A stretch of DNA of 64,000 nucleotides from Lachnospiraceae bacterium (GCA_021199655.1 JAJQHQ010000019.1:12511-76510); one strand, 5' to 3'; positions 39,214 to 62,404 are shown, numbered from the stretch's first letter. Notes: generated by a model from the sequence alone, not told the origin. Numbers and translations are program-made.

Positions 39214-40245
39214 ATGCACGATAGTGTATCATCTGCTATGCCTTGTTTTATGAACAAAATCACCTGTTTGTGTAACAAGAAACGGAAGCTGAAAACCCAG
39301 ATGAATGTGTCAAACGATGAAGATCAGGAATACACAACAGAAGGCAGAAATAATAATGCAAAGGCGAAACGTACGCGGCTGGATGATGCAGCTTTACGTG
39401 ACGCTATTGACATCCTGGATTCTATAAAATTCGCACTGACAGATGTCCTGCTGAATGCGGATTCGTTTGCGGGAGCCTGTAAAAAAAGGGGTTTGTATCA
39501 TATAAATATAAAAAAATTGTTGATTTCAAAAGCGTTTTCAGCCTGCCGGACAGAAGGGCCGCCTTTGCGGCTGGAAGAAACTGTTGTCCTGGAACCGGAT
39601 GGGTTTGAACAGCTTTATCTGGATGTTTTCGGGATGGATGCGATATGCGATGCAGAGCTTCCATTGGACTTCCGTCAGACGGTTTTTGATGTGATCGGGC
39701 AATTAAACGAGCAGGAGCAGAAGGTCCTCCGTTTACGATACGGGTTTTGCGACAAATACGGCATTCCGTTAACATTGGAAAAAACAGGATGTGAACTTGG
39801 CATTACAGCCCCTCGGGTTAAGGTAATTCAGAATAATGCTCTTTGCAAATTGCAGCACCCGCCTTTAAAAACCTGGCTGATGGAAGGATCCATTCAATAT
39901 CAGGCCAGACAGAAAGTTCTTCAGTCGGATCTGGATACATACAAAGCTACTGTTTACTCCTGGTTGAATAGTCATATTGCAAAAACAGACCGAGCCGGGC
40001 GGCAGGAAAACGATATAAAAAGCGACATAAAAGCCGAAGACATTTATTCACTGGGGATTGATGCCATGGGTTTTTCAAATCGAACCGGCAACTGTCTGAA
40101 ACGTGCCGGGAAAAACACGTTTCGTGACGTTCTTGAGCTTACGGAAGAGGATATGTCTAAAATACGCGGACTGGGGTGGAAATGCCGGGAGGAAATCAAT
40201 CGGAAACGCATGGAATGGCTGACGAAGCAAGATGATAATATTTAA
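39214..40245 (+). CDS. Protein combining a sigma-70 region-4-like HTH with an RNAP alpha-CTD-like helix-hairpin-helix domain
   Basis: EQEQKVLRLRYGF...LTLEKTGCELGITAPRVKVIQNNALCKLQHP fits the sigma region 4 pattern. GFSNRTGNCLKRAGKNTFRDVLELTEEDMSKIRGLGWKCREEI fits the alpha-CTD pattern. Start codon uncertain. Confidence 0.55.
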   Translation: MHDSVSSAMPCFMNKITCLCNKKRKLKTQMNVSNDEDQEYTTEGRNNNAKAKRTRLDDAALRDAIDILDSIKFALTDVLLNADSFAGACKKRGLYHINIKKLLISKAFSACRTEGPPLRLEETVVLEPDGFEQLYLDVFGMDAICDAELPLDFRQTVFDVIGQLNEQEQKVLRLRYGFCDKYGIPLTLEKTGCELGITAPRVKVIQNNALCKLQHPPLKTWLMEGSIQYQARQKVLQSDLDTYKATVYSWLNSHIAKTDRAGRQENDIKSDIKAEDIYSLGIDAMGFSNRTGNCLKRAGKNTFRDVLELTEEDMSKIRGLGWKCREEINRKRMEWLTKQDDNI

Positions 40246-40706: not shown

Positions 40707-41492
40707 ATGAAAGTCGTAATGCTTGCGGGCGGCTTCGGAACACGGATCAGTGAGGAGAGCCATCTGCGTCCGAAGCCAATGGTCGAGATCGGCGGGAAAC
40801 CGATTCTCTGGCATATCATGAAAGAATATTCTTACTACGGATTTAATGAATTTATCATCTGCGCCGGCTATAAACAGCATGTGATCAAAGAATGGTTCGC
40901 GAATTATCACCTTCACAACAGCGATGTGACGTTCGATTTTACATCCAATGGGAAAATGCAGGTGCATAACAATGTCTCTGAACCATGGAAAGTGACGATC
41001 GTGGACACTGGACTGTACACGCAGACCGGCGGACGGATCAAACGGATTCAGAAATATGTGAAGGACGAGCCTTTTTTTCTGACTTATGGAGATGGTGTCT
41101 GTGATATTGACATTCGTAAGCTTCTGGAGTTTCACAAAAGCCATGGAAAGATAGCGACTCTGACCGCCGTCCATATCGGTCAGCGGTTTGGCGTGCTGGA
41201 TATTGACCGGGAAGATCTGACTGTGCGTGCATTCCGCGAAAAGTCGATGGCGGACGGTTCCCGGATCAATGCAGGCTATATGGTGCTTCAGCCGGAGATT
41301 TTTGACTATATTGATGACGGCGACGACGCTGTTTTTGAGAAAGAGCCTCTGGAGCGGCTGGTGCAGGATGGGCAGTTGGCGGCTTATAAGCACAATGGCT
41401 TCTGGCAGTGCATGGACACGCAGAGAGAAAAAGAACAGCTGGAAGAGATGATCGCTGCGGGGAAGGCACCCTGGATGGTATGGGACAAATGA
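40707..41492 (+). CDS. rfbF: Glucose-1-phosphate cytidylyltransferase
   Basis: MKVVMLAGGFGTRISEES, KPMVEIGGKPILWHIM and full-length RfbF/DdhA similarity. AGGAGG RBS. Confidence 0.9.
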   Translation: MKVVMLAGGFGTRISEESHLRPKPMVEIGGKPILWHIMKEYSYYGFNEFIICAGYKQHVIKEWFANYHLHNSDVTFDFTSNGKMQVHNNVSEPWKVTIVDTGLYTQTGGRIKRIQKYVKDEPFFLTYGDGVCDIDIRKLLEFHKSHGKIATLTAVHIGQRFGVLDIDREDLTVRAFREKSMADGSRINAGYMVLQPEIFDYIDDGDDAVFEKEPLERLVQDGQLAAYKHNGFWQCMDTQREKEQLEEMIAAGKAPWMVWDK

Positions 41493-42553
41493 ACGAGTTT
41501 GACTGGTATAAAGGAAAAAAAGTTCTGGTGACCGGGCACACCGGATTTAAAGGAACATGGCTTTGCAAAATGCTGCTGATGGCGGGAGCGGAAGTGACCG
41601 GCTATGCGCTTAAGCCGCCGACCGAGCCGAATCTGTTTGATATCAGCGGTGTACAGCCGTGTATCCGGTCCATTATCGGCGATATCCGCGATCTGGAGCA
41701 TCTGAAAGCGGTATTTCAGGAAGTACAGCCGGAGATAGTGCTTCATCTGGCAGCGCAGCCGATCGTCCGGGATTCTTATAAGGAGCCGGTCTATACGTAT
41801 GAGACGAATGTCATGGGGACAGTGAATGTCTGTGAGTGTGTCCGGTTGAATCCATGCGTGAAGTCTTTTTTGAATGTCACGACCGACAAAGTCTACGAGA
41901 ACAAAGAGTGGGCGTGGGGCTACCGGGAAAACGAACCGCTGGACGGCTACGATCCCTACTCCAACAGCAAGTCCTGCTCGGAGCTGGTGACGCACAGCTA
42001 TATTCATTCGTTTTTTGAAAAGATGGAAGTGGCTGTCTCTACCGCGCGCGCGGGTAATGTGATCGGCGGGGGCGATTTCGCCAACGACCGGATTCTTCCG
42101 GATTGCATCCGGGCAGCAGGCCGGAAAGAGGATATCGTTGTACGGAATCCTCATTCGACACGGCCTTATCAGCATGTGCTGGAGCCGCTGACCGTCTATC
42201 TGACGATCGTGAAAGAACAATATGAGGACAGAACAAAGGCGGGCTTTTATAATGTTGGTCCGGACGACTGCGACTGCGTGACGACCGGACAGCTGGTCGA
42301 CCTCTTCTGTGAAAAATGGGGTGAGGGTCAGACCTGGATCAACCAGTGTGACAACGGCCCTCATGAGGCTAATTTTCTGAAGCTGGACTGCTCGAAAGTA
42401 AAGCATGTGTTCGGCTGGAAGCCGCGTTGGCATGTCGAAGAGGCAGTTGCGAAGACGGTTGAATGGGCAAAGGTATATTACGCGGGTCAGGATGTACCGG
42501 CCTGTATGGAAACACAGATCAGGGAATTTACGCGGACTGGGGCAACGGTATGA
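41489..42553 (+). CDS. rfbG: CDP-glucose 4,6-dehydratase
   Basis: VTGHTGFKGTWL Rossmann motif, YSNSK (YxxxK), and ATGA start/stop overlap with rfbF. The track ORF's upstream extension is rejected. Confidence 0.9.
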   Translation: MNEFDWYKGKKVLVTGHTGFKGTWLCKMLLMAGAEVTGYALKPPTEPNLFDISGVQPCIRSIIGDIRDLEHLKAVFQEVQPEIVLHLAAQPIVRDSYKEPVYTYETNVMGTVNVCECVRLNPCVKSFLNVTTDKVYENKEWAWGYRENEPLDGYDPYSNSKSCSELVTHSYIHSFFEKMEVAVSTARAGNVIGGGDFANDRILPDCIRAAGRKEDIVVRNPHSTRPYQHVLEPLTVYLTIVKEQYEDRTKAGFYNVGPDDCDCVTTGQLVDLFCEKWGEGQTWINQCDNGPHEANFLKLDCSKVKHVFGWKPRWHVEEAVAKTVEWAKVYYAGQDVPACMETQIREFTRTGATV

Positions 42554-42595: not shown

Positions 42596-45500
42596 ATGAA
42601 AGCAGGGCATCTGAAAAATAATACACATACAAAGACTGCTTTTTTAATATTTTGTATTGTATTATTTACAGTCTCTATGAGTATAATGAAGGTCCGTGCT
42701 GAAGATACAGAGTTTCCGTTTTCGGGAGATGGCTCAAAGGATTCCCCTTATCTGATTCAAAGTGTGGAAGAACTGTGCGAATTTCGGGATCTGGTGAATG
42801 AAGGAGAAGAGTTTCAGGACTGTTATTTTTACCAGACCGGGAATCTTGATCTCGGCGGTATGGATTGGGTTCCGATCGGGATTTATGGGAGCGGCCATTA
42901 CTTTTATGGTGTCTATGACGGCGGAGGACACTATCTGGAAAATCTTACAATTGTCGAGCCAATCGATCCGGGAGAGAATGAGTCATCCAGTAAGCCGGGG
43001 CTGTTTGGACAGCTGGCAGGCATTGTCCTGAATCTGGGAATCGAAAGCGGTGAGATTGAAGGCACTTACTGCGGCTCCATTGCAAGCCATGCTGTGTCAG
43101 GTGCTTCTCCTTATATTATCAACTGCTATAATAAAGCGGATGTTAAGGGCCGGCGGGCCGGCGGGATCGCTGACAACTTCAGCGGTGGAACGATCATTAA
43201 CTGCTGGTACAGCGCGAATATAGAGAGCTTATCCGGGACGGCATCAGGACCGGCTTCTTATGATGGAATACTGATTGACTGTTTCGGCATCACGGATGAT
43301 TACGCGGATTCCTTTCTGGGAACGATCATTGCCGCCCGCGGGACCGGTTCGGAATCGGATCAGTCGGGTGACAGCCGGATTTTTGATGCAGGTCTTTTTT
43401 ATTTGCCTGAGGAAATTGATATTGATATGCTGATCCCATGGGAATGGGACGAAGATGAAAATGAGCTGGTTTTTTCAGAAAACACTTCTGCACAGGTATC
43501 GGTAAATGCGGAAACGGCCTTTGAGGGAGAAGGGACAGAAGCGGAGCCTTATCTGATTCAATCCTGGTCGGATCTGTGTATGTTCCGCTATCTGGTAAAT
43601 ACAGGGAATGAGTTTTCCGGTATTTATTTTCAGCAGACAGCGGATATTGCAATAGAAAGTGACGACTGGATTCCTGTTGGTATCTGCGGGAGCGGGAATT
43701 ACTTTTACGGCATATACGACGGTGCGGGACATGCCATTACGGGCCTGAGAACCAAATACCATATGGATTCGGAACAGGACAGCAAAGGGCTTTTTGGGCA
43801 GCTGGGCGGTGTGGTAGCCAATCTCAGACTGGAAGCGGTCGATATGGAAGGGGCTTATTGCGGAGCAATCGCCGCAATGGCTGCAGGCAAAGGTGAGGAA
43901 CGTACCGCTGCTATTTTGAACTGCTTTGTCAGTGGTTCCATAACCGGATACCGTGTTGGCGGAATTGCAGATTACTTTTCAGAGGCAACCATAGCGAATT
44001 GTATCAGCGATGTTACGATCACATTATATGAAGATGCCGGGGACTGGGAAGACAATACCGGCGGTATTCTTTCTTCCAGTCTGGACACGAAGGTCTATGG
44101 ATGCCGTACAACGGCAGCGCAGGTCATGCCGGATGCATATACCAGCGCTACATCAGGTGTGATCACGGCAGAGGATCTGCAGGATAAAGGATTTGTCCTC
44201 CGGCAGAACATACGCACTGCATTGACTCAGGAACTGTTTGCAAACCGGTTTGGCGTCCGCCTGATGCAGTGGGAACTGACAGAGGAAGGCATTCTACAAT
44301 TCGGGGAAGGGCAGCTGTATCTCCTGCTGTTTGACTGGATGAATCTGTATCTGCTTCCGGTCCTGCTGCTTGTTTTTATCATTTCCATTCTGATATTAAT
44401 GAAAAAAACCGGTATTAAGAGGTTTGAAGATCGATATCATCAGCAGATTTCTGCGGTTCTGATCATTTCGGCGATCCTTTCCGTATTTGTTGACTGTGCC
44501 GCGTTTGGAACCGCAAAAGGGTCATTATGTTTTGGTAATCTGTGTTTTGTTATACAGATCCATGTTGTTTTTGCAGCATCGCTCCTGTTGTTTACAGGAT
44601 ATGTTCGTACTCACGGTCGGAGGAATATCCGCATTGGCCGCGGAAACAGGACCGGCCTCATTACATTGTCTGCAGTGATGCTGCTGACATTGATTCTGGA
44701 GCTGCGGCAATTTGGCATTACGCCTCTCTATGATGCCTCTCTATATTATGGAAGCCTGGTGAGAGGAGTGAAATTATTTCGCCTGGATCTGTTCAGCTAT
44801 ATCGGCGCTTTTGTATGCTGGAAATGGGCGCAGGGAAGTGCTTTGCTGATCGCTCCGCTTGAGTTTCTGCTGCCGGGACAGATGACAGGCGTATATGTGT
44901 CAAATATTATCATAACGGAAATTACGATCGTGGTCATGTACCGTCTCTTAAAAGAATCCATAAGTGACTGCTCTCCTGTGCTTGCGGCTCTGTCGGGCGC
45001 CATTTTGATTTTTTGTCCCTATCAGTTAGGAATGTTTACGTATCTTAATTTTGATACGTACCTTTCCTGTTATGTAATCTGGCTGTTATACAGCTACAGA
45101 CGAAAGAACAATCTGATGATTGCGTTTTGCGGCTATTTGCTTTGCTTCACCAAGATAACCGGGGGTATCTTTTACGTGTTGTTTCTTGTGGCAGCTTCTG
45201 TGTATGAAGCGCTCAGACGATATACCGGATCCTGGCTCAGACGTATGGCCGGATGGTGGAGCTGGCCCAGATGTATCATCTGGATGGTCCCGGGATTTCT
45301 CTATCTGGGCGCCTATCTGTTCGGCGACTGGCTGACTATACAGCACTTCGAGGGAGCCTATGTGATCTCGGCAATGGCTTCGGCAAAAACACTGGTTTCC
45401 GCAGGAAATACTCTGGTGCAGGCATTTGTATTTGGATTTCGGTGGCTTTTCCTGCTGATCATCATCGCTGCGGGGATTCTGTGGCTGATATGCCCTCCGG

Positions 45501-46432
45501 GACGCCATCAGACGATCGATCAGGAAGGCACACAGCTTGTCTGCGGGTTACTGGCAGGAACTGTTTTTGTTATTCTGATGCTGCTTTTGTATAATGGCAA
45601 TGCGGAATGTCCCCGATATACGGCGATCCTGAATTCGGTATATTGCATTCTGATTCCGATTGTGGTATCATTTCTCGGGCATCAGGCAGCAACTGCCGGC
45701 CATGCGGTGGAAGCGCCCCCTCCCTTACGGTCGGCGGCAGGTTGCGCCGTCAATGAGAGAAACGCTGCGCGTTTGGACGGCGCTGCAGTATCTGCGGGAA
45801 AGCAGACTCCTCTGCCGGCAGCTGTGATGGGGGTTCTGGCCGTCCTGCTGCTGATACAGACGTACTGGACGATCGATCCGGTCATCCTGGTGCATGGTTC
45901 GGGAATTGATACCGGAAAGAAGACATTGTATCGTCTGGCTCTTGATCAGGATTCCCGTTCAGGGATGAATCTGGGAGCTGATTATAGTGAATATACAGCT
46001 GTAGGGGATATTTATGCTTATAATATTGAGTACAGCTATTATAACAGCCTGATCCGGGAAGCAATGACGGAGATTGAGCCTGATAAAGAGGATCAGTTTT
46101 ACATTCTGGATCTGATCACATATGAGATGCATCTTAGCGGGGAGCAGTATCCCATTTACTGGAACTCCCGATTAGGAAAAATGACCTATGACGGCGAGGA
46201 TGAGGACAGTATATTACTTTCACAGGAAAGTATAAAAACGGAAGATCTCTGTGCGGCAGATATCGGCTCATTGGAATTAGAAGAGGAATTTTATCTGGTA
46301 GTTGCGGCGCGCGTGGATGAGCAGGCCGCGGTGGACCGCATTCTGGAAGAAGGATATGAAGCAGCGGAAGTACTCGAATATGAGAATCTATACGGGGCGA
46401 TGAGTGTATACCGCTTTGTTAAACAGTCCTGA
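42596..46432 (+). CDS. 1278-aa surface/membrane protein: signal peptide, two GLUG-like modules, GT-C-like polytopic domain, C-terminal soluble domain
   Basis: Modules are at about 42715-43215 and 43520-44010 (PYLIQS...QTxDxxL...WxPIG...YDGxGH...GLFGQL...NCxN...GGIADxF), followed by more than 10 TM helices. Confidence 0.6.
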   Translation: MKAGHLKNNTHTKTAFLIFCIVLFTVSMSIMKVRAEDTEFPFSGDGSKDSPYLIQSVEELCEFRDLVNEGEEFQDCYFYQTGNLDLGGMDWVPIGIYGSGHYFYGVYDGGGHYLENLTIVEPIDPGENESSSKPGLFGQLAGIVLNLGIESGEIEGTYCGSIASHAVSGASPYIINCYNKADVKGRRAGGIADNFSGGTIINCWYSANIESLSGTASGPASYDGILIDCFGITDDYADSFLGTIIAARGTGSESDQSGDSRIFDAGLFYLPEEIDIDMLIPWEWDEDENELVFSENTSAQVSVNAETAFEGEGTEAEPYLIQSWSDLCMFRYLVNTGNEFSGIYFQQTADIAIESDDWIPVGICGSGNYFYGIYDGAGHAITGLRTKYHMDSEQDSKGLFGQLGGVVANLRLEAVDMEGAYCGAIAAMAAGKGEERTAAILNCFVSGSITGYRVGGIADYFSEATIANCISDVTITLYEDAGDWEDNTGGILSSSLDTKVYGCRTTAAQVMPDAYTSATSGVITAEDLQDKGFVLRQNIRTALTQELFANRFGVRLMQWELTEEGILQFGEGQLYLLLFDWMNLYLLPVLLLVFIISILILMKKTGIKRFEDRYHQQISAVLIISAILSVFVDCAAFGTAKGSLCFGNLCFVIQIHVVFAASLLLFTGYVRTHGRRNIRIGRGNRTGLITLSAVMLLTLILELRQFGITPLYDASLYYGSLVRGVKLFRLDLFSYIGAFVCWKWAQGSALLIAPLEFLLPGQMTGVYVSNIIITEITIVVMYRLLKESISDCSPVLAALSGAILIFCPYQLGMFTYLNFDTYLSCYVIWLLYSYRRKNNLMIAFCGYLLCFTKITGGIFYVLFLVAASVYEALRRYTGSWLRRMAGWWSWPRCIIWMVPGFLYLGAYLFGDWLTIQHFEGAYVISAMASAKTLVSAGNTLVQAFVFGFRWLFLLIIIAAGILWLICPPGRHQTIDQEGTQLVCGLLAGTVFVILMLLLYNGNAECPRYTAILNSVYCILIPIVVSFLGHQAATAGHAVEAPPPLRSAAGCAVNERNAARLDGAAVSAGKQTPLPAAVMGVLAVLLLIQTYWTIDPVILVHGSGIDTGKKTLYRLALDQDSRSGMNLGADYSEYTAVGDIYAYNIEYSYYNSLIREAMTEIEPDKEDQFYILDLITYEMHLSGEQYPIYWNSRLGKMTYDGEDEDSILLSQESIKTEDLCAADIGSLELEEEFYLVVAARVDEQAAVDRILEEGYEAAEVLEYENLYGAMSVYRFVKQS
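45712..45790 (+). repeat. GC-rich repeat modules read in frame in the 1278-aa ORF
   Basis: Degenerate module 1 at 45716-45737 (..CTTACGGTCGGCGG). Module 2 ATGAGAGAAACGCTGCGCGTTTGGACGGC at 45753-45781. Confidence 0.75.
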
Positions 46433-46468: not shown

Positions 46469-47824
46469 ATGAACCACTGGGAAAATGAGACAGAGGCACG
46501 GGAAGAAATTAAAAGCCTGGTAACGGAATATTACCATCAGTTCAAAGAAAAGAAAAACGATTTTCACGAGGGAGACCGCATCTCCTATGCCTCAAGAGTG
46601 TATGACGAAAAAGAAATGTGCGCGCTGACGGACGCGACGCTGGACTTCTGGCTGACGACGGGCCGCTTTGCGGATCAGTTTGAAAAAGATTTTGCGAAGT
46701 GGATCGGTGTGCGGTATGCGCATCTGGTCAACAGCGGTTCCTCTGCGAATCTGATCGCGTTTATGGCGCTGACGGCGCCGGAGCTTGGGGAGCGGCAGAT
46801 CCGGCGGGGAGATGAGATCATTACCGTCGCCTGTGGGTTTCCCACCACTGTGACGCCGATCCTGAACTACGGCGCGGTGCCGGTCTTTGTGGATGTGACC
46901 GTTCCGCAGTACAACATTGACGTCACAAAACTGGAGGCTGCTCTCTCAGAAAAGACGAAAGCCGTCATGATCGCGCATACGCTCGGCAATCCGTTTGATC
47001 TTCAGCAGGTAAAGGCATTCTGCGATGCGCATGATCTCTGGCTGGTGGAGGACAACTGCGACGCACTCGGCACACAGTATACGATCAACGGTGAGACGAA
47101 ATACACCGGCACCTGGGGCGATATCGGGACCAGCAGCTTCTATCCGCCGCACCATATGACGATGGGGGAAGGCGGATGCGTCTATACGGATAATCCTCTG
47201 CTTCATAAGCTGATCCTATCCTACCGCGACTGGGGACGCGACTGTATCTGCCCATCCGGAAGAGACAATTTCTGCGGGCACCGGTTCGATGGGCAGCACG
47301 GGGAGCTTCCGCAGGGCTATGATCATAAATATGTCTACAGTCATTTTGGATATAATTTAAAGGTGACCGATCTGCAGGCGGCGATTGGCTGCGAGCAGCT
47401 GAAGAAATTCCCGTCCTTTATCGAGCGCCGCCGGCACAACTGGGACAGGCTGTATGCGGCTCTGGAAGGCGCGCAGGATAAGCTGATCCTGCCCGAGCCG
47501 GCGGATCACAGCCGCCCGTCATGGTTTGGTTTTCTGATCAGTGTGAGGGAAGAGAGCGGTCTGGATCGCAACAAAGTGACCCGGTATATCGAAGAGCACA
47601 ATGTACAGACGAGACTTTTGTTTTCCGGGAACCTGATCAAACATCCCTGTTTCGATCAGATTCGAGGCACGGACGCGTATCGTGTGGCGGGAAGTCTGGA
47701 TGCGACGGAATTTATCATGAACAACACGTTCTGGGTGGGCGTCTACCCGGGGATGACAGATGAAATGATCGACTATATGGCAAAGGTGATACTTGAGGCG
47801 ACAGATTGCCGGAGAAACAGGTAA
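46469..47824 (+). CDS. rfbH: CDP-4-keto-6-deoxy-D-glucose 3-dehydrase (E1, RfbH/DdhC type)
   Basis: DegT-fold with SSFYPPHHMTMGEGG (His where aminotransferases have the Schiff-base Lys) and a C-x-C-x7-C cluster (DCICPSGRDNFC). Confidence 0.85.
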   Translation: MNHWENETEAREEIKSLVTEYYHQFKEKKNDFHEGDRISYASRVYDEKEMCALTDATLDFWLTTGRFADQFEKDFAKWIGVRYAHLVNSGSSANLIAFMALTAPELGERQIRRGDEIITVACGFPTTVTPILNYGAVPVFVDVTVPQYNIDVTKLEAALSEKTKAVMIAHTLGNPFDLQQVKAFCDAHDLWLVEDNCDALGTQYTINGETKYTGTWGDIGTSSFYPPHHMTMGEGGCVYTDNPLLHKLILSYRDWGRDCICPSGRDNFCGHRFDGQHGELPQGYDHKYVYSHFGYNLKVTDLQAAIGCEQLKKFPSFIERRRHNWDRLYAALEGAQDKLILPEPADHSRPSWFGFLISVREESGLDRNKVTRYIEEHNVQTRLLFSGNLIKHPCFDQIRGTDAYRVAGSLDATEFIMNNTFWVGVYPGMTDEMIDYMAKVILEATDCRRNR

Positions 47825-47883: not shown

Positions 47884-49719
47884 ATGAAACAGAGATTAGC
47901 GGACTATGTGGCGGATTTTCTGGTGGAGCATGGCGTGACCGACTGTTTCAGCGTGGTCGGCGGAGGCGCCATGCATTTAAATGACGCACTGGGGCACAAA
48001 GAAGGCCTGCATGTGACGTATAATCATCACGAACAGGCCTGCGCGATCGCTGCGGAAGCCTATGCGCGCCTTGACAACAGGATTGCGGCTGTCTGTGTGA
48101 CGACAGGACCGGGCGGAACGAATGCACTGACTGGTGTAGTCGGCGGATGGCTGGACTCGATCCCGATGTTCATTATCAGCGGGCAGGTGCGCTATGATAC
48201 GACAGCCAGATATGCGCTGCAGTTTACAGGGACACCGCTGCGGGCGATGGGGGATCAGGAGTATGATATCGTAAAATCGGTGGAACCGATGACAAAATAC
48301 GCGACCATGATCGAGGATCCCACGCAGATCCGGTATGCGCTCGAAAAGGGCTGGCATCTTGCCACGACGGGCAGACCGGGGCCGGTCTGGATCGATATTC
48401 CGGTGAATTACCAGGGCGGCTACATTGAAACGGATGAACTGGAAGGCTATGATCCGGCAGAGGATGACGCGCTTCTTCCGCCGAAGGTCTCTGATGAGAC
48501 GATCGATGCCGTTCTGGAAAAGATAAAGAACGCAAAGCGACCGGTCTTCCATGCGGGATATGGAATCCGGCTTTCCGGAGGGTACGAAGCCTTCCGCGAA
48601 GCGGCGGACAGGCTGCAGATACCGGTCGTCACCTACTGGAACGCGGCGGATCTGATTGAGGATGAGAACCCATTGTACTGCGGCCGTGCCGGAAACATGG
48701 GTGACCGGCCGGGCAACTGGGCGATCCAGAACGCGGATCTGATCCTCGCGGTCGGTACGCGGATCTCCATCCGGCAGGTCGGATATAACTGGAAGACATG
48801 GGCACGCGCCGCGGAAGTGATCATGGTCGATATTGACCAGGCAGAGATGAAAAAGCCCACGCTGCATGTGGATATGCCCATCTGGGCAGATGCGAAGGAT
48901 TTTCTGACAAAGCTGAATTCCAGGATCCTGCAGACACCGGTCAGCACAGCTTCTGACTGGCTTGCGACCTGTCAGCGCTGGAAGCGGGAATATCCTGTAG
49001 TGCAGCCGCGTCAGTGGGAAGAGAACGGGACAACAGCAAATGTCTATGCATTTGTGCGCTACCTTTCCAGCCGGCTTCCGGAAAACAGCCTTACAGCGGT
49101 ATCGAACGGAGCCTGCTGCGTGGTAGGCAATCAGGCTTATGTGATCCAGAAAGGAAGCCGTATGGCCAACAACAGTGCGATCGCCAGCATGGGGTATGGC
49201 CTTCCGGCCGCGATCGGCACCTGCATCGGCGGCGGCAGGAGAACAACAATCTGCCTGGAGGGAGACGGCAGCATTATGATGAACCTGCAGGAGCTGCAGA
49301 CCGTGCTGACCAACCGGCTTCCCATCAAGCTGTTTCTGATTAACAACAACGGGTATCATTCCATCCGTATAACGCAGACCAATCTGTTCGGAGAGCATAC
49401 GAAGGTGGGGATCGGGCCGGAGTCAGGCGACCTTTCCTTCCCGGAATTCCGGAAGATTGCGGAAGCGTTTGGGTATCCTTATTACAGCGCATCCAGCAAT
49501 GCCGAAATGAAGGAAGTCGTAGATCAGGTGCTGATCGCGGACGGACCGGTATTCTGCGAGATCTTTACGGACACAAAGCAGGTATGGGAGCCGAAGAGCA
49601 GCACGAAACGTCTGGAGGACGGAACGCTTGTCAGCCCGCCGCTTGAAGACCTTGCTCCGTTCCTGCCAAAAGAGGAACTCGAAAAGAACATGTTTATTCC
49701 GCTGGTACCGGAGGAGTAA
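47884..49719 (+). CDS. Thiamine-diphosphate-dependent enzyme (acetolactate-synthase-like; YerE-like candidate sugar C-branching enzyme)
   Basis: ThDP motif GDGSIMMNLQELQT...INNNGY and three-domain ALS-like length. Located between rfbH and an SDR. Confidence 0.75.
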   Translation: MKQRLADYVADFLVEHGVTDCFSVVGGGAMHLNDALGHKEGLHVTYNHHEQACAIAAEAYARLDNRIAAVCVTTGPGGTNALTGVVGGWLDSIPMFIISGQVRYDTTARYALQFTGTPLRAMGDQEYDIVKSVEPMTKYATMIEDPTQIRYALEKGWHLATTGRPGPVWIDIPVNYQGGYIETDELEGYDPAEDDALLPPKVSDETIDAVLEKIKNAKRPVFHAGYGIRLSGGYEAFREAADRLQIPVVTYWNAADLIEDENPLYCGRAGNMGDRPGNWAIQNADLILAVGTRISIRQVGYNWKTWARAAEVIMVDIDQAEMKKPTLHVDMPIWADAKDFLTKLNSRILQTPVSTASDWLATCQRWKREYPVVQPRQWEENGTTANVYAFVRYLSSRLPENSLTAVSNGACCVVGNQAYVIQKGSRMANNSAIASMGYGLPAAIGTCIGGGRRTTICLEGDGSIMMNLQELQTVLTNRLPIKLFLINNNGYHSIRITQTNLFGEHTKVGIGPESGDLSFPEFRKIAEAFGYPYYSASSNAEMKEVVDQVLIADGPVFCEIFTDTKQVWEPKSSTKRLEDGTLVSPPLEDLAPFLPKEELEKNMFIPLVPEE

Positions 49720-49722
49720 ATT

Positions 49723-50697
49723 ATGGAAACCGGGGACAATATACAGGTGAAACAGAGTATGATACACAGAACGATCAGAAATGCGGTAGTGACAGGACCT
49801 ACCGGAGCGATTGGAACTGCCTTATGCAAAAAACTGCTGTCGGAAGGCATTCATGTATGGGCCGTCTGCCGGCCGGGGAGTGCACGGGCAGCTGACCTGC
49901 CCGAAGACGAGCATTTGGATATCGTCTATTGTGATGCAAAGGACATTCTGACACTGCCTGACCGGATTCCTGTCAGAGTGCAGGCTTTCTTTCATCTGGC
50001 ATGGGCCCATACGATCGGGGAAGGCCGGAATGATATGATCGCTCAGACGGAAAATATACAGTACACGCTGTATGCTGTGCAGTGTGCCGCGAGGCTGGGC
50101 TGTCAGGTATTTATCGGAGCCGGGAGTCAGGCGGAGTATGGCCGGGTAAATGGTCCGCTTCGCGCGGATACCCCCTGCAATCCTGAAAATGGATATGGCA
50201 TGGCCAAGCTGTGTGCGGGACAGATGAGCCGTGTGGAAGCCGGGAAACTTCAGGTTGCACATGTCTGGCCGCGGGTATTGTCGGTATATGGTCCGCATGA
50301 GCACCCGTCAACGATGACCTCATTTTTGACGAAGACTCTTTTGAGAGGGGAAAAACCTGCTCTGACAGCGGGAGAACAGATATGGGATTATCTGTATTCG
50401 GCGGACGCGGCAGATGCTTTTTACCGAATGGCTGTATCGGGCAGGGACGGTGCGGTGTATCCGCTTGGAAGCGGCGAAGCGCGTCCCTTAAAAGAGTATA
50501 TTGGCAAGATCCGGGATACGATCGATCCGGCTCTGCCACTGGGGCTGGGAGAGATCCCTTATGGTAAGCTTCAGGTGATGCATCTGGAAGCGGATATCAC
50601 TGCTCTTAAGGAAGATACAGGCTTTGAAGCACATACGGATTTTGCGACAGGAATAAAAGAGACAATAGACTGGATCAGGAGTCGGGAAAATGAGTAA
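49723..50697 (+). CDS. NAD(P)-dependent epimerase/reductase (extended SDR)
   Basis: VTGPTGAIGTAL and YGMAK (YxxxK). GGAGGAG lies 6 nt before the ATG. Confidence 0.8.
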   Translation: METGDNIQVKQSMIHRTIRNAVVTGPTGAIGTALCKKLLSEGIHVWAVCRPGSARAADLPEDEHLDIVYCDAKDILTLPDRIPVRVQAFFHLAWAHTIGEGRNDMIAQTENIQYTLYAVQCAARLGCQVFIGAGSQAEYGRVNGPLRADTPCNPENGYGMAKLCAGQMSRVEAGKLQVAHVWPRVLSVYGPHEHPSTMTSFLTKTLLRGEKPALTAGEQIWDYLYSADAADAFYRMAVSGRDGAVYPLGSGEARPLKEYIGKIRDTIDPALPLGLGEIPYGKLQVMHLEADITALKEDTGFEAHTDFATGIKETIDWIRSRENE

Positions 50698-51637
50698 AGA
50701 GAAGAAAAAGATATCTGTGATGATCCCCTGCTATAATGAGGAAGAAAATGTGGTTCCCATCAGCGAAGCGGTCGTAGATATTTTAAATAAAGAACTGCCG
50801 GAATATGATTATGAAATCCTGTTTATCGACAACTGCTCTACGGATAAGACCAGAGATCTGCTTCGGGCTATCTGCAGTCAGAACAAAAAGATCAGGGCAA
50901 TCCTGAACGCCAGAAATTTTGGACAGTTTAATTCCCCCTACTATGGACTTTGCCAGACGACGGGAGACTGTACGATCTCTCTGTGCTGTGATTTTCAGGA
51001 TCCGGTGGAACTGATCCCGGTGTTTGTTCATGAATGGGAAAAAGGCTATAAGATCGTCAGCGGGATTAAGACGTCCAGCAAGGAAAATCGTTTTATTTAT
51101 TTTTTGAGAACCGTATATTATAAGCTGATCAAAAATATGTCGTCCGTGGATATGATCGAGCACTTCACCGGTTTTGGACTGTATGATAAAGACTTTATCC
51201 AGCTGCTTCGCGATCTGGAGGATCCGATTCCGTTTATCCGTGGGGTGGTTGCGGAATTTGGCTATAAACGAAAGGAAATCGAATACGAGCAGCCGAAACG
51301 GAGAGCGGGGAAAACACACAACAATTTTTATTCCCTGTATGATGCCGCCATGTTGAGCTTCACTTCTTACACGAAGGTCGGACTGCGGCTGGCAAGCTTT
51401 GTGGGATATATCTGTGCGTTTTTCAGTTTTGTAGTCGGAATCGTATATTTTGTTCAGAAGCTTCTGCACTGGAACGACTTTTCAGCCGGCATGGCGCCGC
51501 TGGTCATAGGACTGTTTTTCCTGTCCGGCATTGAGCTGATCTTTATCGGATTTCTGGGAGAATATGTCATGAATATCAACCAGAGAGTGATGAACAGGCC
51601 TCTGGTGATAGAAGAAGAGAGAATCAATTTTGAGTAA
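50690..51637 (+). CDS. GT2 polyprenyl-phosphate glycosyltransferase (GtrB/ArnC-like) with two C-terminal TM helices
   Basis: ISVMIPCYNEEENV, FIDNCSTDKT, CDFQDP. The C-terminal TM pair is typical of GtrB. Confidence 0.8.
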   Translation: MSKEKKKISVMIPCYNEEENVVPISEAVVDILNKELPEYDYEILFIDNCSTDKTRDLLRAICSQNKKIRAILNARNFGQFNSPYYGLCQTTGDCTISLCCDFQDPVELIPVFVHEWEKGYKIVSGIKTSSKENRFIYFLRTVYYKLIKNMSSVDMIEHFTGFGLYDKDFIQLLRDLEDPIPFIRGVVAEFGYKRKEIEYEQPKRRAGKTHNNFYSLYDAAMLSFTSYTKVGLRLASFVGYICAFFSFVVGIVYFVQKLLHWNDFSAGMAPLVIGLFFLSGIELIFIGFLGEYVMNINQRVMNRPLVIEEERINFE

Positions 51638-51884: not shown

Positions 51885-54242
51885 ATGCGGAAGGAAAGAT
51901 ACCTGCGGAAGAAAAAGAACATGGGTACAGACCCTGTGTTTTTGATTTTTCTGATTTTTTCTGTTATCATACCCGGTCTGTATGCCGGAATCCTGTATAA
52001 TCAGACCATGCCGTTTGCGGAGGGATGGTATACTTATTATGCGCAGTGCATCAACGACGGACTGATGCCATACCGGGACTTTGAGTATCTGTTTTCCCCG
52101 GTATATATTTATTTTATAGCGCTGGTAACGAGGATTTTCGGCTATAAGATCATTGTGCTTCGCGTGCTTGGCGTGCTGTTTTTCTGTATCATTTCGGCAC
52201 TGCTCTATATTCTGATCTGCAATATTCTGGAGACAAGAAATAAATACTGTGTTGCTTTCATTGCGGCCGCAACAGCGGTTTTTTATCTGCAGTCGGAAGT
52301 GGTGCAGATCTTTTATGATTATATCCGGATGATGGATATTTTTGCCATTCTCTCGGTATTGTTCCTTGTAAAAACGGTAAAAACAGCCGAAAGAGCGGAA
52401 AGCTGTACCCGGGATCTTCTGCTGTGCGGTCTGTTTACCGGCCTGTTTATCAATGTGAAACAGAACATGGGGCTTGTTTTTCTGGCGTACGCCTTTATCC
52501 TGCTGATCTATGTCGGTCTCTATATGAAAAAAGGGATAAAAGAGACAGGAAAAGCTCTTCTGCTGTTTCTGGCGCCGATCGCTGTTCTGACGGGAATCAT
52601 CTATGCCTTTTTGTTCTCTCATGGGGCTTTATCTGCTTATCTGCAGTCTACGGGCGCGGGCGCGGTCAGCACCAAAGGCGGGATGGCAAAGATCCTGTTC
52701 GGCTGGATTGTGAATAACAGCGCCTCTTTCATAAGGGCGTTGCCTTTTGCTGTCATTGGTCTCTGTGTCATTTGCCTGCTGCTGTTTCGCAATGAAAAAA
52801 GAAAAGATCAGGCGATCGGCGGCCATTTGGACAGCCTGTACGGTATTGCCTTTTTTCTGGCTGCCGGTGCGCTGATCCTGCTGCTTGCGTTCCAGAAATC
52901 CTTTGCATATGCGGTCTCTTTTGAACACTATCCAAGCCCATATCTTTTGTTTCTTATTGTGTTTCCCCTGTTTGTTTTTTGGGGAGTATGCGGAATAGCT
53001 GACATGATCAGGGGAAGCGCATTGCTTAAGAAGTATATGCTGTATTTTGTTGTGGCCGGTTCTTATTTCGCGATCGCATTCGGATGCGGGACTTCAGGCG
53101 GTCTGGCGGAAGGACAGTCATCCTTAGGGGTCGCGCTTCTGGTTACTTTGCTCTTTACGCTTCTTGCCGGCGGAACGGATGCGCAGGGAAACAATAAGGC
53201 AGAAAAAATAGTAAAGGGGGCTGTGTCCATTGCCTGTCTTTTTCTTGTTCTGCAATGCGCGGATAAGAAAATGATCAATACGTATTACTGGTGGGGCATG
53301 GATGAATCTGATTTCTGGTCCAACACGGCTGTGTCGGATATTCCTCTTCTGGAAGGGATCGGGCTGTCTGCGGAAACAAAAGAGGTATATGAGGGAATCT
53401 ATGATGCCATCGTAAATCATACGGAAGAGGATGACGCCATTTTCTGTTTTCCTCAGATTCCCATATTCTATAGCTTATGCGACAGAACGGATCCGGGTAC
53501 GACGACCAAAGTGCAGTGGTTTGATGTTTCCACTGACGAATCCATAGAGGAAGATATCGAATATCTGAAAGAAAATCTGCCGAAGGCGATCATTCTGTAT
53601 AATACGACGGAAGAGACTTATGATTCCCATGAGAGTGCCTTTCGGAATGGAGAAGTCTCCGGGACCAGAGAAATGCGGGAGTTTTTATATAATCTGGTGT
53701 ACGAATATGACTATACCTTTTATGGCCGCTATGAAGCAAACAGCAATGTGATACAGGTGTGGATACTGGAAGAAGATGGATACGAAGCCGGAAGCACGAC
53801 GGAAGTGTTTGCCGGCGGCAGCGGCACGTATGAAGACCCGTATCTGATCGAGACGGCAGACCAGCTGATGCTGTTTGCCAGGATGGTAAATGAGGGAAGA
53901 AGCTTTGAAGGCAGTTATATCAGGCAGACCGCGGATATCGATCTGGAAGGTTATGACTGGGTGCCCATCGGCGAATATGGTTCCGGCGCATATTTTTACG
54001 GCACCTACGATGGCGCGGGTCATGTGATCCGAAATATGACCTTTGATGATTCGGGAAGCAATGGAGGCCTGTTCGGAGCGTTGGCAGGAGAAGTCTATAA
54101 TCTGGGCCTTGAGGGCGGCCTGATCAATGGTAACTGTGCAGGGGGGGATCACCAGCCACTCTTATGGAGAAAACGCAAAAATTGTCAACTGCTATACGGA
54201 TCTGGCTGTTTCCGGAAACAGGGCCGGAGGCATTGCGGATAA
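51885..54242 (+). CDS. GT-C-like (ArnT/PMT-like) polytopic glycosyltransferase with a C-terminal GLUG-like module; reading frame lost at a G7 tract
   Basis: N-terminal TM bundle with the MPYRDFEY loop. The GLUG-like module starts at about 53800 (EDPYLIE...QTADIDL...WVPIG...YDGAGH). The last 31 codons after 54147 are out of frame. Confidence 0.7.
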   Translation: MRKERYLRKKKNMGTDPVFLIFLIFSVIIPGLYAGILYNQTMPFAEGWYTYYAQCINDGLMPYRDFEYLFSPVYIYFIALVTRIFGYKIIVLRVLGVLFFCIISALLYILICNILETRNKYCVAFIAAATAVFYLQSEVVQIFYDYIRMMDIFAILSVLFLVKTVKTAERAESCTRDLLLCGLFTGLFINVKQNMGLVFLAYAFILLIYVGLYMKKGIKETGKALLLFLAPIAVLTGIIYAFLFSHGALSAYLQSTGAGAVSTKGGMAKILFGWIVNNSASFIRALPFAVIGLCVICLLLFRNEKRKDQAIGGHLDSLYGIAFFLAAGALILLLAFQKSFAYAVSFEHYPSPYLLFLIVFPLFVFWGVCGIADMIRGSALLKKYMLYFVVAGSYFAIAFGCGTSGGLAEGQSSLGVALLVTLLFTLLAGGTDAQGNNKAEKIVKGAVSIACLFLVLQCADKKMINTYYWWGMDESDFWSNTAVSDIPLLEGIGLSAETKEVYEGIYDAIVNHTEEDDAIFCFPQIPIFYSLCDRTDPGTTTKVQWFDVSTDESIEEDIEYLKENLPKAIILYNTTEETYDSHESAFRNGEVSGTREMREFLYNLVYEYDYTFYGRYEANSNVIQVWILEEDGYEAGSTTEVFAGGSGTYEDPYLIETADQLMLFARMVNEGRSFEGSYIRQTADIDLEGYDWVPIGEYGSGAYFYGTYDGAGHVIRNMTFDDSGSNGGLFGALAGEVYNLGLEGGLINGNCAGGDHQPLLWRKRKNCQLLYGSGCFRKQGRRHCG

Positions 54243-54597
54243 TTTTGCCGGTGTGATAGAAAACTGCTTTTGCGCCGGTGAGATAACCGGAACATACGCT
54301 GCAAATATCATATCGAGTAATACTGTGCTGGAGGTTTCAAACGTATTTGTAGAGGAAAGCGACCTGAACTGCGGCTTTTATTCGATGGATAAGTACGATG
54401 AAAGGATTACGTACTGCAGTGATGAGACATTAGACTCAGACGCACTGCTTAATATCATAAATGAATATGCAGACAATGTAAATAAAGGGAATGCCGGTGA
54501 TGAAACAGAAAATACAGAAGCAGAGGCGGAAGATCAGGATCCGATCACTCTGGTCTACTGGAAAAAAGGGGAAGACGGGCATCCGGTATTCCAATAG
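54127..54597 (+). CDS. C-terminal fragment (frame +1) of the GT-C/GLUG gene 51885-
   Basis: ITSHSYGENAKIVNCYTDLAVSGNRAGGIADNFAGVIENCF continues the GLUG-like module. Confidence 0.7.
   Translation: MVTVQGGITSHSYGENAKIVNCYTDLAVSGNRAGGIADNFAGVIENCFCAGEITGTYAANIISSNTVLEVSNVFVEESDLNCGFYSMDKYDERITYCSDETLDSDALLNIINEYADNVNKGNAGDETENTEAEAEDQDPITLVYWKKGEDGHPVFQ
54141..54147 (+). other. Poly-G (G7) tract at the frameshift point
   Basis: With G6 the sequence reads NCAGG-ITSHSYGENAKIVNCY. This matches paralogues at CGSIASHAV..IINCY and CGGITSHGG..IINCY. Confidence 0.85.
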
Positions 54598-54696: not shown

Positions 54697-56031
54697 ATGA
54701 AGACAGGTCAGGAAGCTTCAAAAAAACATGTTTTTTCAAAACAACCGGCTTTTTTCAGGCGGTATGAGTATTTATGGAAAAAGCCCTCGTTTGCTTTTAT
54801 GCTGCTGATGCTCATAAGCCTGTTTGCGCTGGCGGCAGTTTTCCTGTTTACGCGAGGAAACGCCATGGAGCATTTCTGGTTTTACTCGACGATTGACACG
54901 GGAATGGATTTCTTTCACAGCATCGAGTATGTAAGAGGCAGATGGCCGTATAAAATATTCGAGACCTTATACCCGCCGCTGGCCAACCTGTTTTTTCTGT
55001 TTATCTATGCATTCATACCGGAAAGCGTAACGGAAAACTGGACGTATGATTTCACAGAGTCTGTGAATATGCGGCAGACAGCTTATGATCTGCGGACGTA
55101 TCAAAGCTGCTTTATGATGTTTCTTTTCTTCGTGATCCTTGTCACTTTTATGCTGGCGATTCTGGTCAGCCGATATCTGCGGAAAAAGGGAATCCGCAGC
55201 GCGGGAGCCTGCGCGCTTGGCTTTGTTTTAAGCTATGGAGTTCTTCAGGCGCTGGAGCGGGGAAATATTGTGATCCTTGCCGCCGGATTTTCCCTGCTTT
55301 TTGTTTCGTTTTATCGTTCAGACAATAAAATCCTGAAAGAACTGGCACTGATCTCTCTGGCGGCCGCCGCGGGATTGAAAGTATATCCCTGCCTGCTGGG
55401 AGTGCTGATCCTGAAGGAAAAAGATTTTTCTGCCGCCATCCGCACGGTCCTGTATGGCATAGCCGCATTTATCCTTCCGTGTTTTGCGTTCCGGGAAGGG
55501 CTTGAGGCGATACCCATGTGGCTGACTATTTTAATAAATCATACGAACAGTCTGGAAGAACCATGGCTGGGGATCGGTATCTCAAATGCCTTTGCTGATG
55601 GCGCGCATCTGATCGACATGATCTTTGGAAGCAGTCTCGCTGACAGCTCATTTGGTATTGCAGGTATTGTCGTTGCGGTATTTTTCCTGATCTCATCCCT
55701 GTTTCTGAAAAAAACGTGGATGAGCGCATTGGCCATAACCTTTGCAATGCTGTTTCAGGATCAGGGAAGTTATTTTTTCTGCATGGCGCTGATACCGCTG
55801 ATGCTGTTTCTGGGAGAGGAAAAGGAATTCACACGCGAAAACAGCATTCCGTTTCTGGTCATGATGACCATGACATTGCCGCTTCCGCTGCTTTATACGT
55901 ATAATGTGAGCAATGCGAGAAGCAGTGTTTTTCATATAGCCATACTTATTTTCCTGATATGGAGCATTACAGATCTGGCTAAAAACGGGTTAAAGGAAGG
56001 ACAGGAAAGGCATTCATGGAATCGCGTGTAG
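54697..56031 (+). CDS. Polytopic membrane protein, putative GT-C-type glycosyltransferase (DUF2029/GT87-like)
   Basis: More than 10 TM helices with a GLKVYPCLL-type motif. Functional assignment is tentative. Confidence 0.45.
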   Translation: MKTGQEASKKHVFSKQPAFFRRYEYLWKKPSFAFMLLMLISLFALAAVFLFTRGNAMEHFWFYSTIDTGMDFFHSIEYVRGRWPYKIFETLYPPLANLFFLFIYAFIPESVTENWTYDFTESVNMRQTAYDLRTYQSCFMMFLFFVILVTFMLAILVSRYLRKKGIRSAGACALGFVLSYGVLQALERGNIVILAAGFSLLFVSFYRSDNKILKELALISLAAAAGLKVYPCLLGVLILKEKDFSAAIRTVLYGIAAFILPCFAFREGLEAIPMWLTILINHTNSLEEPWLGIGISNAFADGAHLIDMIFGSSLADSSFGIAGIVVAVFFLISSLFLKKTWMSALAITFAMLFQDQGSYFFCMALIPLMLFLGEEKEFTRENSIPFLVMMTMTLPLPLLYTYNVSNARSSVFHIAILIFLIWSITDLAKNGLKEGQERHSWNRV

Positions 56032-56264
56032 AAAGAAGAATTTGCAGTTTATTGTCAGCAATCCTGATGATCGGGGTTGAAATTCTTTATATGCTCTTAT
56101 GGCAGCATACCGATATCATAAAAAGCAGAATCGGTGATCTCGCGAGTTATGATCTGCTGTATTATTGCTCCGCTGTGGTGCTGTCTGCAGCAATATTTGT
56201 ACTGCTTTTTTTTTCTCCTGGATCGCTGTGTCTTTCGTATCCGGGGGATCCGTTTGCTGCTTGA
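56016..56264 (+). CDS. Probable true N-terminus of the next polytopic membrane protein; frame lost at a T9 tract
   Basis: The ATG overlaps the upstream stop (ATGGAATCGCGTGTAG). It encodes two plausible TM helices up to 56214. Confidence 0.45.
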   Translation: MESRVERRICSLLSAILMIGVEILYMLLWQHTDIIKSRIGDLASYDLLYYCSAVVLSAAIFVLLFFSPGSLCLSYPGDPFAA

Positions 56265-60420: not shown

Positions 60421-60443
60421 CAGCCGGACGGAGGCTAAGGATT

Positions 60444-62104: not shown

Positions 62105-62326
62105 ATGAAAGAAAAAGTATTAGCGTTACTGGAAGAAGAATTTGCGGATATTGATTTTTCACAGGATGCTCTGGTAGACGATGGCATCCTGGATTCCCTG
62201 ACGATCGTATCCATGATCACGACCCTGTCGCTGGAATTTGGGATCACAATCCCCTATGATGAGGTAATCCCGGAGAACTTTAATTCTGTGGACGCGATTA
62301 CGGAACTGGTTGAAAAGCTTAGCTGA
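62105..62326 (+). CDS. Small acyl/D-alanyl carrier protein (DltC-like)
   Basis: 73 aa and acidic, with a phosphopantetheine-Ser context GILDSLTIVSMI. Directly follows the MBOAT gene. Confidence 0.75.
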   Translation: MKEKVLALLEEEFADIDFSQDALVDDGILDSLTIVSMITTLSLEFGITIPYDEVIPENFNSVDAITELVEKLS

Positions 62327-62329
62327 TAT

Positions 62330-62382
62330 GTAACTGCTCGGGAGGGCATCTCGTGACGTAAAAGTACGGAACAGTTGCGTAC
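62330..62382 (+). repeat. Degenerate, expanded GTAAC-hairpin repeat
   Basis: GTAACTGC...GTAAAAGTACGGAACAGTTGCGTAC, ending at the SD of the next gene. Confidence 0.55.
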
Positions 62383-62404
62383 AAAGGAGCATATTGATAT
62401 TAAA

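Follow-up and report, generated by a model that had tools for sequence, protein, structure and literature searches.

The subject of the present analysis is an extracellular module that recurs in the membrane enzymes encoded by a stretch of 64,000 nucleotides from a Lachnospiraceae bacterium (GCA_021199655.1, JAJQHQ010000019.1:12511-76510; hereafter, the window). Two copies lie at the N-terminus of the product of an open reading frame (ORF) at positions 42596-46432 on the plus strand (P0001, 1278 aa), which is composed of a signal peptide, two beta-helix modules, a membrane domain of the GT-C glycosyltransferase (GT) fold and a C-terminal alpha/beta domain; the other two belong to a GT39/ArnT-like GT-C enzyme (P0002/3, 51885-54597, +) and to an SGNH protein (P0004, 801 aa, 58015-60420, +). 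An earlier reading of the DNA by itself (the sequence-only reading) had placed four homologous modules at these sites, with GT-C and SGNH enzymes as their hosts, and both statements are borne out. The identity between any two of the four modules is 38-50% over 169-182 aligned residues and, when each is used as a tblastn query against the whole 3.98-Mb genome, the modules retrieve one another at E 1e-30 to 1e-48; as judged by these comparisons their homology is far above chance, and the possibility that the four segments belong to different families, which the same reading had left standing, is decided in favor of a single family.

Module a, the membrane-distal copy of P0001 (hidden Markov model, HMM, envelope at aa 34-230, nt 42695-43285, with a cap reaching ~43480, +), is 47-50% identical to the other window copies. 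Module b, the membrane-proximal one (43496-44305, +; HMM envelope aa 301-495, nt 43496-44080), consists of a beta-helix at aa 301-505 and of a C-capping helix and hairpin at aa 525-570, and adjoins the first transmembrane (TM) helix; in the numbering of the AlphaFold2 (AF2) model its secondary structure reads E19-201, H231-252 and E258-270, followed by the TM helix H274-305. Module c is found at the C-terminal end of the GT39-like enzyme (HMM envelope aa 635-830 of the joined reading described below, nt 53787-54375, with a cap to ~54594, +), and module d in P0004 (58105-58857, +; HMM envelope aa 31-215, nt 58105-58659), where AF2 assigns aa 31-215 to the beta-helix, aa 241-258 to the cap helix and aa 268-281 to the hairpin. 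The two models computed, of P0001 aa 301-1278 and of full-length P0004, display the same beta-helix module, with a predicted local distance difference test score (pLDDT) mostly above 90 and the same anatomy: a strand carrying the PYLI sequence, an N-capping helix, about six to seven rungs, a long helix, a beta-hairpin and then the first TM helix. Conserved residues fall in PYLI, WxPIG, YDGxGH, GLFG, NCY and AGGIAD, and each beta-helix is followed by the helix and beta-hairpin, with a conserved [LI]xW...G..F motif. The full repeat unit amounts to about 265 aa (P0001 aa 36 to 301, from the AF2 secondary structure); the module of ~170 aa originally proposed corresponds to the beta-helix part, which indeed repeats, but leaves out the helix and the hairpin. 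The N-terminal copies are preceded by signal peptides, the SGNH protein contains a TM hairpin and the copy of the GT39-like enzyme comes after a C-terminal soluble domain; these features, the TM predictions and the topology of the families agree in a predicted extracytoplasmic position of all four modules. That the module is found on either side of the membrane domain, as had been proposed, holds for the order along the sequence, but the predicted topology puts every copy outside.

The relatives of the module were sought among PDB sequences and by structural comparison. A three-sequence profile matched 3N6Z at E 7e-15, and no other solved structure, and a 26-sequence profile matched it at E 5e-22, together with the Gemella immunoglobulin A1 (IgA1) protease chain 7uvl_P at E 1.9e-5; for both AF2 models, 3N6Z is also the first-ranking Foldseek match (E 3.1e-6 for the P0001 model and 2.5e-7 for the P0004 model, prob 1.0), and the IgA1 proteases of pneumococcus and Gemella (7uvl, 7jgj, 6xja) are listed with prob 0.98-1.0. 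Profile homology and predicted fold together show that the module is a non-catalytic, extracytoplasmic right-handed beta-helix domain belonging to the superfamily of 3N6Z and of the NTD2 domain of the M26 IgA1 proteases. The idea of a catalytic beta-helix, such as a lyase or a hydrolase, was considered and discarded: no such fold or sequence was matched, and the conserved residues are common to the non-enzymatic 3N6Z and NTD2. No match of the module to a known carbohydrate-binding module (CBM) family was obtained by sequence or fold, and scans of whole proteins and isolated modules against Pfam and NCBIfam returned no usable family.

The relationship of the module with the GLUG motif deserves a separate comment. 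The rung turns are of a degenerate GLUG type, the AGGIAD..NC rungs being GLUG-like; none of the window modules reaches the gathering score of the Pfam GLUG model (PF07581, 20.5 bits), the best being module b (12.1 bits, E 0.28), while modules a and d give no match at E up to 10, and Glug at E <=1e-4 is absent from 45 of 46 related module-bearing proteins. Two further, distant copies of the module (27-34% identity by tblastn) are present in large secreted proteins of the same genome, one at C18:154418-155059 and the other at C94:5066-5590, the latter within a true GLUG-repeat protein (Glug E 2.9e-20) whose tblastn alignment to the module has E 3e-13; by these alignments, the module has distant paralogues in the GLUG-repeat proteins of its own genome. 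The term GLUG-like, used in the sequence-only reading, is therefore apt as far as kinship is concerned, since the module is homologous to the 3N6Z/NTD2 helix and has GLUG proteins as distant paralogues, but the Pfam GLUG model itself misses the modules. That reading knew of no characterized function for this architecture; none was found here, and a literature search on the GLUG-type domain returned no functional study. As for the two large secreted proteins (C18:152150-158698 and C94:4301-5938), they have in common long N-terminal Thr/Glu/Ala-rich tracts and a Cys segment (CxHGNxAxxCAxC...); the former runs off the contig end after more than 2182 aa.

P0001 is matched by no Pfam or NCBIfam family. 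The AF2 model of aa 301-1278 (978 residues; pLDDT 89.8, predicted template modeling score, pTM, 0.91) finds in Foldseek, at prob 1.0, ALG9 (7e-5), ArnT (1.6e-4), ALG12 (2e-4) and Pmt4 (7.6e-4), followed by AglB, EmbB and AftD, and by these matches its polytopic membrane domain (44315-45865, +) has the GT-C fold. Invariant columns of the family within this domain comprise D713 (in YDAxLYYGS), E756, R1007/Y1008 and D1094 (in QTYWTIDP); D713, invariant in 43 sequences, is predicted to lie in a loop between TM helices. Among the late TM helices, P0001 contains an Ala/Pro/Gly-rich insertion of about 25 residues (45712-45790, +), absent from homologues such as P0006 and predicted to be disordered (pLDDT <50 at model residues 745-768, corresponding to P0001 aa 1045-1068). 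An identical public protein is recorded as 1248 aa, with a start 30 codons later (42686) and without a signal peptide; with the start at 42596 the protein has, like its orthologues, a normal signal peptide. Named carriers of the P0001 family are Lachnospiraceae and their relatives (Pseudobutyrivibrio, Coprococcus hominis, Jutongia hominis, Eubacterium sp. MSJ-21), and the family also occurs in single Collinsella and Bacteroides metagenome-assembled genomes (MAGs). A GT2 gene lies directly 5' of the P0001-family gene in two other loci (L001 and L002), and a third (L003) is fully syntenic with the window; P0001 thus represents a GT-C family which lacks a Pfam model and is regularly linked to a sugar pathway composed of cytidine diphosphate (CDP)-dideoxyhexose enzymes and a thiamine diphosphate (ThDP) enzyme.

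The second host, the GT39/ArnT-like enzyme (PMT_2 E 5.6e-9, 36.8 bits versus a cut-off of 26.1), had been described as a single GT-C protein; a GT-C gene with a module does span these positions, but it is split into two ORFs (51885-54242 and 54127-54597, 903 aa when joined) and the break falls within module c, at a run of seven G (54141-54147, +) which introduces a +1 frameshift. Dropping one G restores ...GNCAGGITSH..., a residue-for-residue match to the paralogues. All of the 119 other homologues listed for this enzyme are single ORFs of ~580-1120 aa, the orthologues being 880-905 aa long, and the syntenic orthologue of locus L003, from the nearest named relative (Lachnospiraceae bacterium U.9_8), is intact (940 aa) and reads GGAGGG in the place of the G run; the frameshift may be due to an assembly error, a pseudogene or phase variation.

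Along the same lines, about 5-6 of the ~37 G/C runs of at least 7 nt in the genome sit exactly at the junction of two long ORFs in different frames, compared with ~7 of 218 A/T runs of at least 8 nt. Besides the site in the window, these G/C runs are at C10:141730, C14:75813, C18:122284 and C34:41066; the genes hit encode a pilin/Cna-B-like protein (953+696 codons), a giant protein (3660+810 codons), an LtaS-like enzyme and the GT39-like enzyme itself. Such G/C tracts might mediate phase variation of surface genes; alternatively, they might reflect an assembly artefact specific to G/C. A second homopolymer frameshift in the operon is suggested by a run of nine T (56206-56214) between a short ORF with two TM helices (56016-56264) and a polytopic ORF of 625 aa in another frame (56134-58011), which eight T would fuse.

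The third host, P0004, contains after its signal peptide and module d a TM hairpin (aa 286-358), an SGNH/DltD-like domain (aa 364-665) and a C-terminal beta domain. Its score against Pfam is below threshold (17.5 bits versus 32.9); the full-length AF2 model (pLDDT 85.5, pTM 0.66) nevertheless finds in Foldseek TesA (TMt 0.68), DltD (3bma, prob 0.99) and PatB, and S386 (in GSSH), D613 and H616 (in DDSHLN), i.e. the block I Ser and the block V Asp/His of SGNH enzymes, are invariant or nearly so in 42 sequences. Some homologues of this family bear the label PF27429.

The distribution of the module extends far beyond these three enzymes. When 1.84 billion representative proteins (50%-identity clusters) were searched exhaustively with its profile, the module matched 41,477 clusters at E <=1e-3, 19,157 at E <=1e-10 and 2,613 at E <=1e-30; at the top of the list, most proteins are 2,000-8,000 aa long and contain as many as 36 matched stretches. 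Given the number of matches and the giant proteins at their head, the module is a very common component of the surface proteins of Clostridia, and among the commonest extracellular domains of this group. Other fusion partners among module-bearing proteins are a GT87-like enzyme (15 of 46 short top hits), an LtaS-like sulfatase-fold enzyme, Acyl_transf_3 (AT3) and PMT_2; in all, the module is found fused to at least six enzyme classes. The sequence-only reading saw in it a unit common to the enzymes of one polymer: three enzymes of the operon do carry it, but it is not special to them. Stand-alone forms, composed of a signal peptide, two to four modules and a TM anchor, also exist; in 17 of the 46 short hits, the protein amounts to two modules flanked by a signal peptide and a single TM anchor at the C-terminus. 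The gene for one such protein, P0093, has an RfbH-like gene on one side and genes for GtrA, a ThDP enzyme and GT2 on the other, in the operon slot that the fused GT-C enzyme occupies in the window, and its GT-C neighbors have no module; another (P0109) lies in a different sugar locus, beside AT3 and GT87 genes.

These observations bear on the suggestion that the module acts as a gate. In the IgA1 protease, part of the active site lies under the NTD2 beta-helix, which shifts to let IgA1 in and touches the substrate (PMC9637739); by homology, a membrane-proximal beta-helix might form a lid over the active site of the host enzyme, moving for acceptor entry and controlling access or processivity rather than affinity. 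Both the pTM of the P0001 model, which would suit a module rigidly docked on the enzyme, and the co-evolution of modules with their host family (see below) speak for a lid. Stand-alone anchored proteins and distal second or third copies, however, cannot be lids, in P0004 a low-confidence linker and the TM hairpin stand between the module and the catalytic domain (with the lower pTM of that model), and the same module is found on folds as unrelated as GT-C, SGNH, sulfatase-fold and AT3 enzymes, which makes a gating role improbable.

The number of modules varies within each host family. Members of the P0001 family have one (~940 aa), two (~1200 aa) or three modules (1474 aa), a form with no module being represented by one match from a Bacteroides MAG; in the SGNH family, forms with none (~475 aa), one (~800 aa) and two (~1100 aa) were found, as in the GT39-like family (~630, ~890 and ~1120 aa, respectively), and in neither was a form with three modules seen. 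The module is therefore an optional accessory of its hosts. Such freedom in copy number, from 0 to 3, and the structural look of the conserved residues could be explained if the rigid beta-helix were an inert spacer or folding aid, adding bulk or stability outside the membrane and binding no specific ligand; yet several enzyme families have kept the module at specific positions throughout a long divergence, and dedicated stand-alone genes are maintained within glycan operons, and we regard this as the least probable of the explanations considered here.

In a maximum-likelihood tree of 116 modules, the sequences group according to host family and to location in the protein, and not to genome. 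Module a falls in the P1-distal clade (P1_dist1, 97/98), module b in the P1-proximal clade (99/93) and module c in the GTC_prox clade (98/94); the placement of module d in the SGNH protein lacks a resolved clade, and no window module groups with another copy from its own genome. The seven host/position labels require 9 changes on the tree, where the possible minimum is 6 and the mean for shuffled labels is 65. Since modules cluster by host family and position, the fusions of enzyme and module are old rather than the product of recent shuffling and were inherited with each enzyme family, module and enzyme evolving together; tandem duplication inside a host family gave rise to second copies. Domain shuffling, as invoked by the sequence-only reading, may thus be retained as history, but it is neither local nor recent. 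Recent duplication or gene conversion within the genome is rejected: the copies are only 38-50% identical, three of the four group with their orthologues from other genomes, and the fourth has no link to the other window copies.

The tree also bears on a possible role of the module as a protein-protein scaffold, whereby modules would bind each other, or the GLUG modules of giant surface proteins, and so assemble or tether the decorating enzymes. Several enzymes of one operon bear the same module, the domain is massively repeated in giant surface proteins, two of which are encoded in this genome, and anchored forms without an enzyme exist, all of which would suit a scaffold; a co-evolving homotypic interface would, on the other hand, not be expected to leave co-resident modules so divergent, each tracking its own host lineage, and many loci contain a single module-bearing protein. 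A scaffold of this kind is unlikely, although it is the one we would discount least among the alternatives to a role in acceptor-polymer binding, which is discussed below in the light of the gene context.

Upstream of P0001, the window encodes a glucose-1-phosphate cytidylyltransferase (RfbF, 40707-41492, +; TIGR02623, 388.6 bits versus 300) and a CDP-glucose 4,6-dehydratase (RfbG, ORF 41408-42553, +; TIGR02622, 439.8 bits versus 278); downstream follow RfbH (46469-47824, +; RfbH model, 713.8 bits versus 423), an acetolactate-synthase-like ThDP enzyme (47884-49719, +; below all equivalog cut-offs) and an epimerase/reductase of the short-chain dehydrogenase/reductase (SDR) superfamily (49723-50697, +; from Pfam). 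The pair formed by the ThDP enzyme and the SDR resembles YerE/YerF of yersiniose synthesis and, with RfbF, RfbG and RfbH all above their equivalog cut-offs, the set looks like a pathway to a branched, yersiniose-like 3,6-dideoxyhexose; in related loci, an HMGL-like enzyme and a HAD phosphatase are encoded as well. A GT2 polyprenyl-phosphate glycosyltransferase of the GtrB/ArnC/PgfS type (50690-51637, +; Glycos_transf_2 E 8.7e-21) scores 1.1e-52 with the PgfS model and 1.3e-37 with the ArnC model, under the equivalog cut-off of both, and has TM helices at 237-255 and 271-289. After the GT39-like gene come a GT87-like GT-C enzyme (54697-56031, +; PF09594, 32.1 bits versus 25), which in the window has no module while relatives elsewhere carry two, the polytopic protein of 625 aa mentioned above, and P0004. 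A DltB-like MBOAT protein (60417-62015, +; MBOAT E 6.7e-13; DltB model 4.5e-42, short of the cut-off) and an ORF of 73 aa that resembles carrier proteins and contains a DSL motif (62105-62326, +; PP-binding E 8e-4, 20.0 bits versus 20.8) make up, with the SGNH/DltD-like protein, what looks like a Dlt-like acylation set; no adenylating ligase for it was seen in the stretch examined. A candidate flippase of the GtrA family (62375-62902, +; PF04138, E 1.3e-20, 74 bits) follows, and the locus also contains an ABC-2 permease (polymer exporter) gene.

All the components of a GtrA/GtrB/GT-C system, i.e. the GT2 enzyme, GtrA and the GT-C enzymes (P0001, P0002/3 and the GT87-like one), are thus present in the window. 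We infer from this context (GT2 with C-terminal TM helices, GtrA) that the donor of P0001-type enzymes is linked to polyprenyl phosphate, and that the locus encodes a three-component extracytoplasmic glycosylation system (for the general framework, see PMC8035078 and PMC11127046) and an O-acylation pair, acting on a surface glycopolymer; by gene families, all three module-bearing enzymes belong to one glycopolymer-decoration operon, in agreement with the original proposal that they decorate the same polymer. A prophage or mobile origin of the region is rejected, composition being even across the window and gene order being kept in a related Lachnospiraceae MAG. The sugar operon is immediately preceded by an ORF of 343 aa (39214-40245) in which Sigma70 region 4 (E 2.3e-10) and the C-terminal domain of RNA polymerase alpha (E 4.9e-15) are found together.

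The gene content also invites the suggestion that the acceptor is a protein: Ser/Thr-rich regions of surface proteins would be O-glycosylated by the GT-C enzymes, as happens with the streptococcal Pgf/GtrB systems and with GT39 protein mannosyltransferases, and the module would recognize the protein. PgfS is indeed the best match of the GT2 enzyme, although below cut-off, one GT-C enzyme is GT39/PMT_2-like, the related NTD2 of IgA1 proteases binds a protein, and the giant GLUG proteins of this genome begin with the long Thr/Glu/Ala-rich tracts described above; glycosylation of Ser/Thr-rich regions by such systems is documented (PMC12041528). The partners of the module, however, include enzymes with teichoic acids or polysaccharides as their substrates (LtaS-like, AT3 and DltD/MBOAT-type), and the polymer exporter gene of the locus also speaks against a protein acceptor, a role we judge rather unlikely.

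The function that we favor, and to which we would grant an even chance of being correct by analogy with other enzymes, is that the module binds or positions the acceptor wall polymer for its host enzyme. The operon would make a sugar derived from CDP-3,6-dideoxyhexose, probably branched, which the GT2 enzyme would load onto polyprenyl phosphate and GtrA would flip across the membrane; sugar and acyl group would then be moved onto the surface glycopolymer outside the cell, the module holding the acceptor polymer beside the membrane-embedded active site. In other genomes, the stand-alone membrane-anchored protein with two modules may supply this role in trans. Acceptor-polymer binding is preferred because acting on wall polymers outside the membrane is the sole trait common to six unrelated catalytic folds, because the module occurs in cis or in trans, because large GT-C enzymes and AlgX carry acceptor-binding domains, and because a separate recognition protein had already been postulated: larger GT-C enzymes carry extracellular carbohydrate-binding domains and, for the smaller ones, a second protein for acceptor recognition has been speculated (PMC8035078). 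The rigid placement of the module in P0001, as read from the pTM of 0.91, and the clustering of modules by host family and position also count in favor of this function.

Several points weigh against this function. NTD2 of the IgA1 protease, the only characterized relative, contacts a protein substrate as a gate and is not a glycan binder (PMC9637739); the conserved residues of the module are also kept in 3N6Z and look like fold determinants; no obvious ligand site was identified among them; and module c is read out of frame in the assembly. A broader version of the acceptor-polymer hypothesis can also be conceived, in which the beta-helix unit would be a new family of wall-glycopolymer recognition domains, representing the postulated second protein in fused or anchored form, common to GT-C, SGNH/MBOAT, LtaS-like and AT3 enzymes, and also tethering giant clostridial surface proteins non-covalently to the polymer decorated by these operons; we consider it a tentative and rather doubtful extension. 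How acceptors are chosen by the extracytoplasmic GT-C and acyl-transfer enzymes of Gram-positive bacteria is poorly understood, and the module is a concrete candidate; being a compact, well-predicted soluble domain, it allows a cheap and direct test of the acceptor question. Binding of wall polymers, if true, would be the first function for a family of more than 40,000 clusters of gut and rumen Clostridia, and the finding overturns no current ideas.

Among the known relatives of the module, 3N6Z (BACOVA_03286, a 'putative immunoglobulin A1 protease' from Bacteroides ovatus) is like it in the right-handed beta-helix, the N-cap and the rung motifs, but is a soluble structural-genomics target, longer (339 residues) and without fusion to a membrane enzyme. 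NTD2 of the M26 metallo-IgA1 proteases of S. pneumoniae and G. haemolysans (6xja, 7uvl, 7jgj) is a homologous short beta-helix that accompanies a catalytic domain as an accessory and contacts the substrate; there, it accompanies a secreted zinc protease acting on a protein, IgA1, whereas here the partners are membrane GT-C, SGNH and other enzymes of wall polymers. Proteins with the Pfam GLUG motif (PF07581) share the GLUG-like AGGIAD..NC rungs; unlike them, the window module has few, degenerate rungs and defined caps.

As regards the enzymes, the three-component systems of Firmicutes (GtlA-GtcA-GtlB, CsbB-YfhO and lactococcal Csd) combine a GtrB-type GT2 enzyme, GtrA and a GT-C enzyme, as does the window, whose GT2 enzyme has two C-terminal TM helices and which encodes several GT-C-fold enzymes; the window differs in the donor derived from a CDP-dideoxyhexose, in a GT-C enzyme (P0001) that falls outside Pfam families, and in the beta-helix modules carried by the enzymes. 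The mycobacterial AftD and EmbA/B/C, and AlgX, an alginate acetylation protein made of an SGNH domain and a CBM, follow the same logic, in that a lipid-linked-donor enzyme or an SGNH acyltransferase working outside the membrane is provided with an additional soluble domain, for which a role in holding the acceptor polymer is assumed; the resemblance extends to the fold of the TM domain of P0001 in the case of EmbB and AftD. The additional domains of AftD, Emb and AlgX are beta-sandwich CBMs for which glycan binding was shown, whereas those of the window are beta-helices for which it is only inferred. An accessory, acceptor-side domain on an extracytoplasmic polymer-modifying enzyme is thus a known theme; its beta-helix version, built from a common domain, is new.

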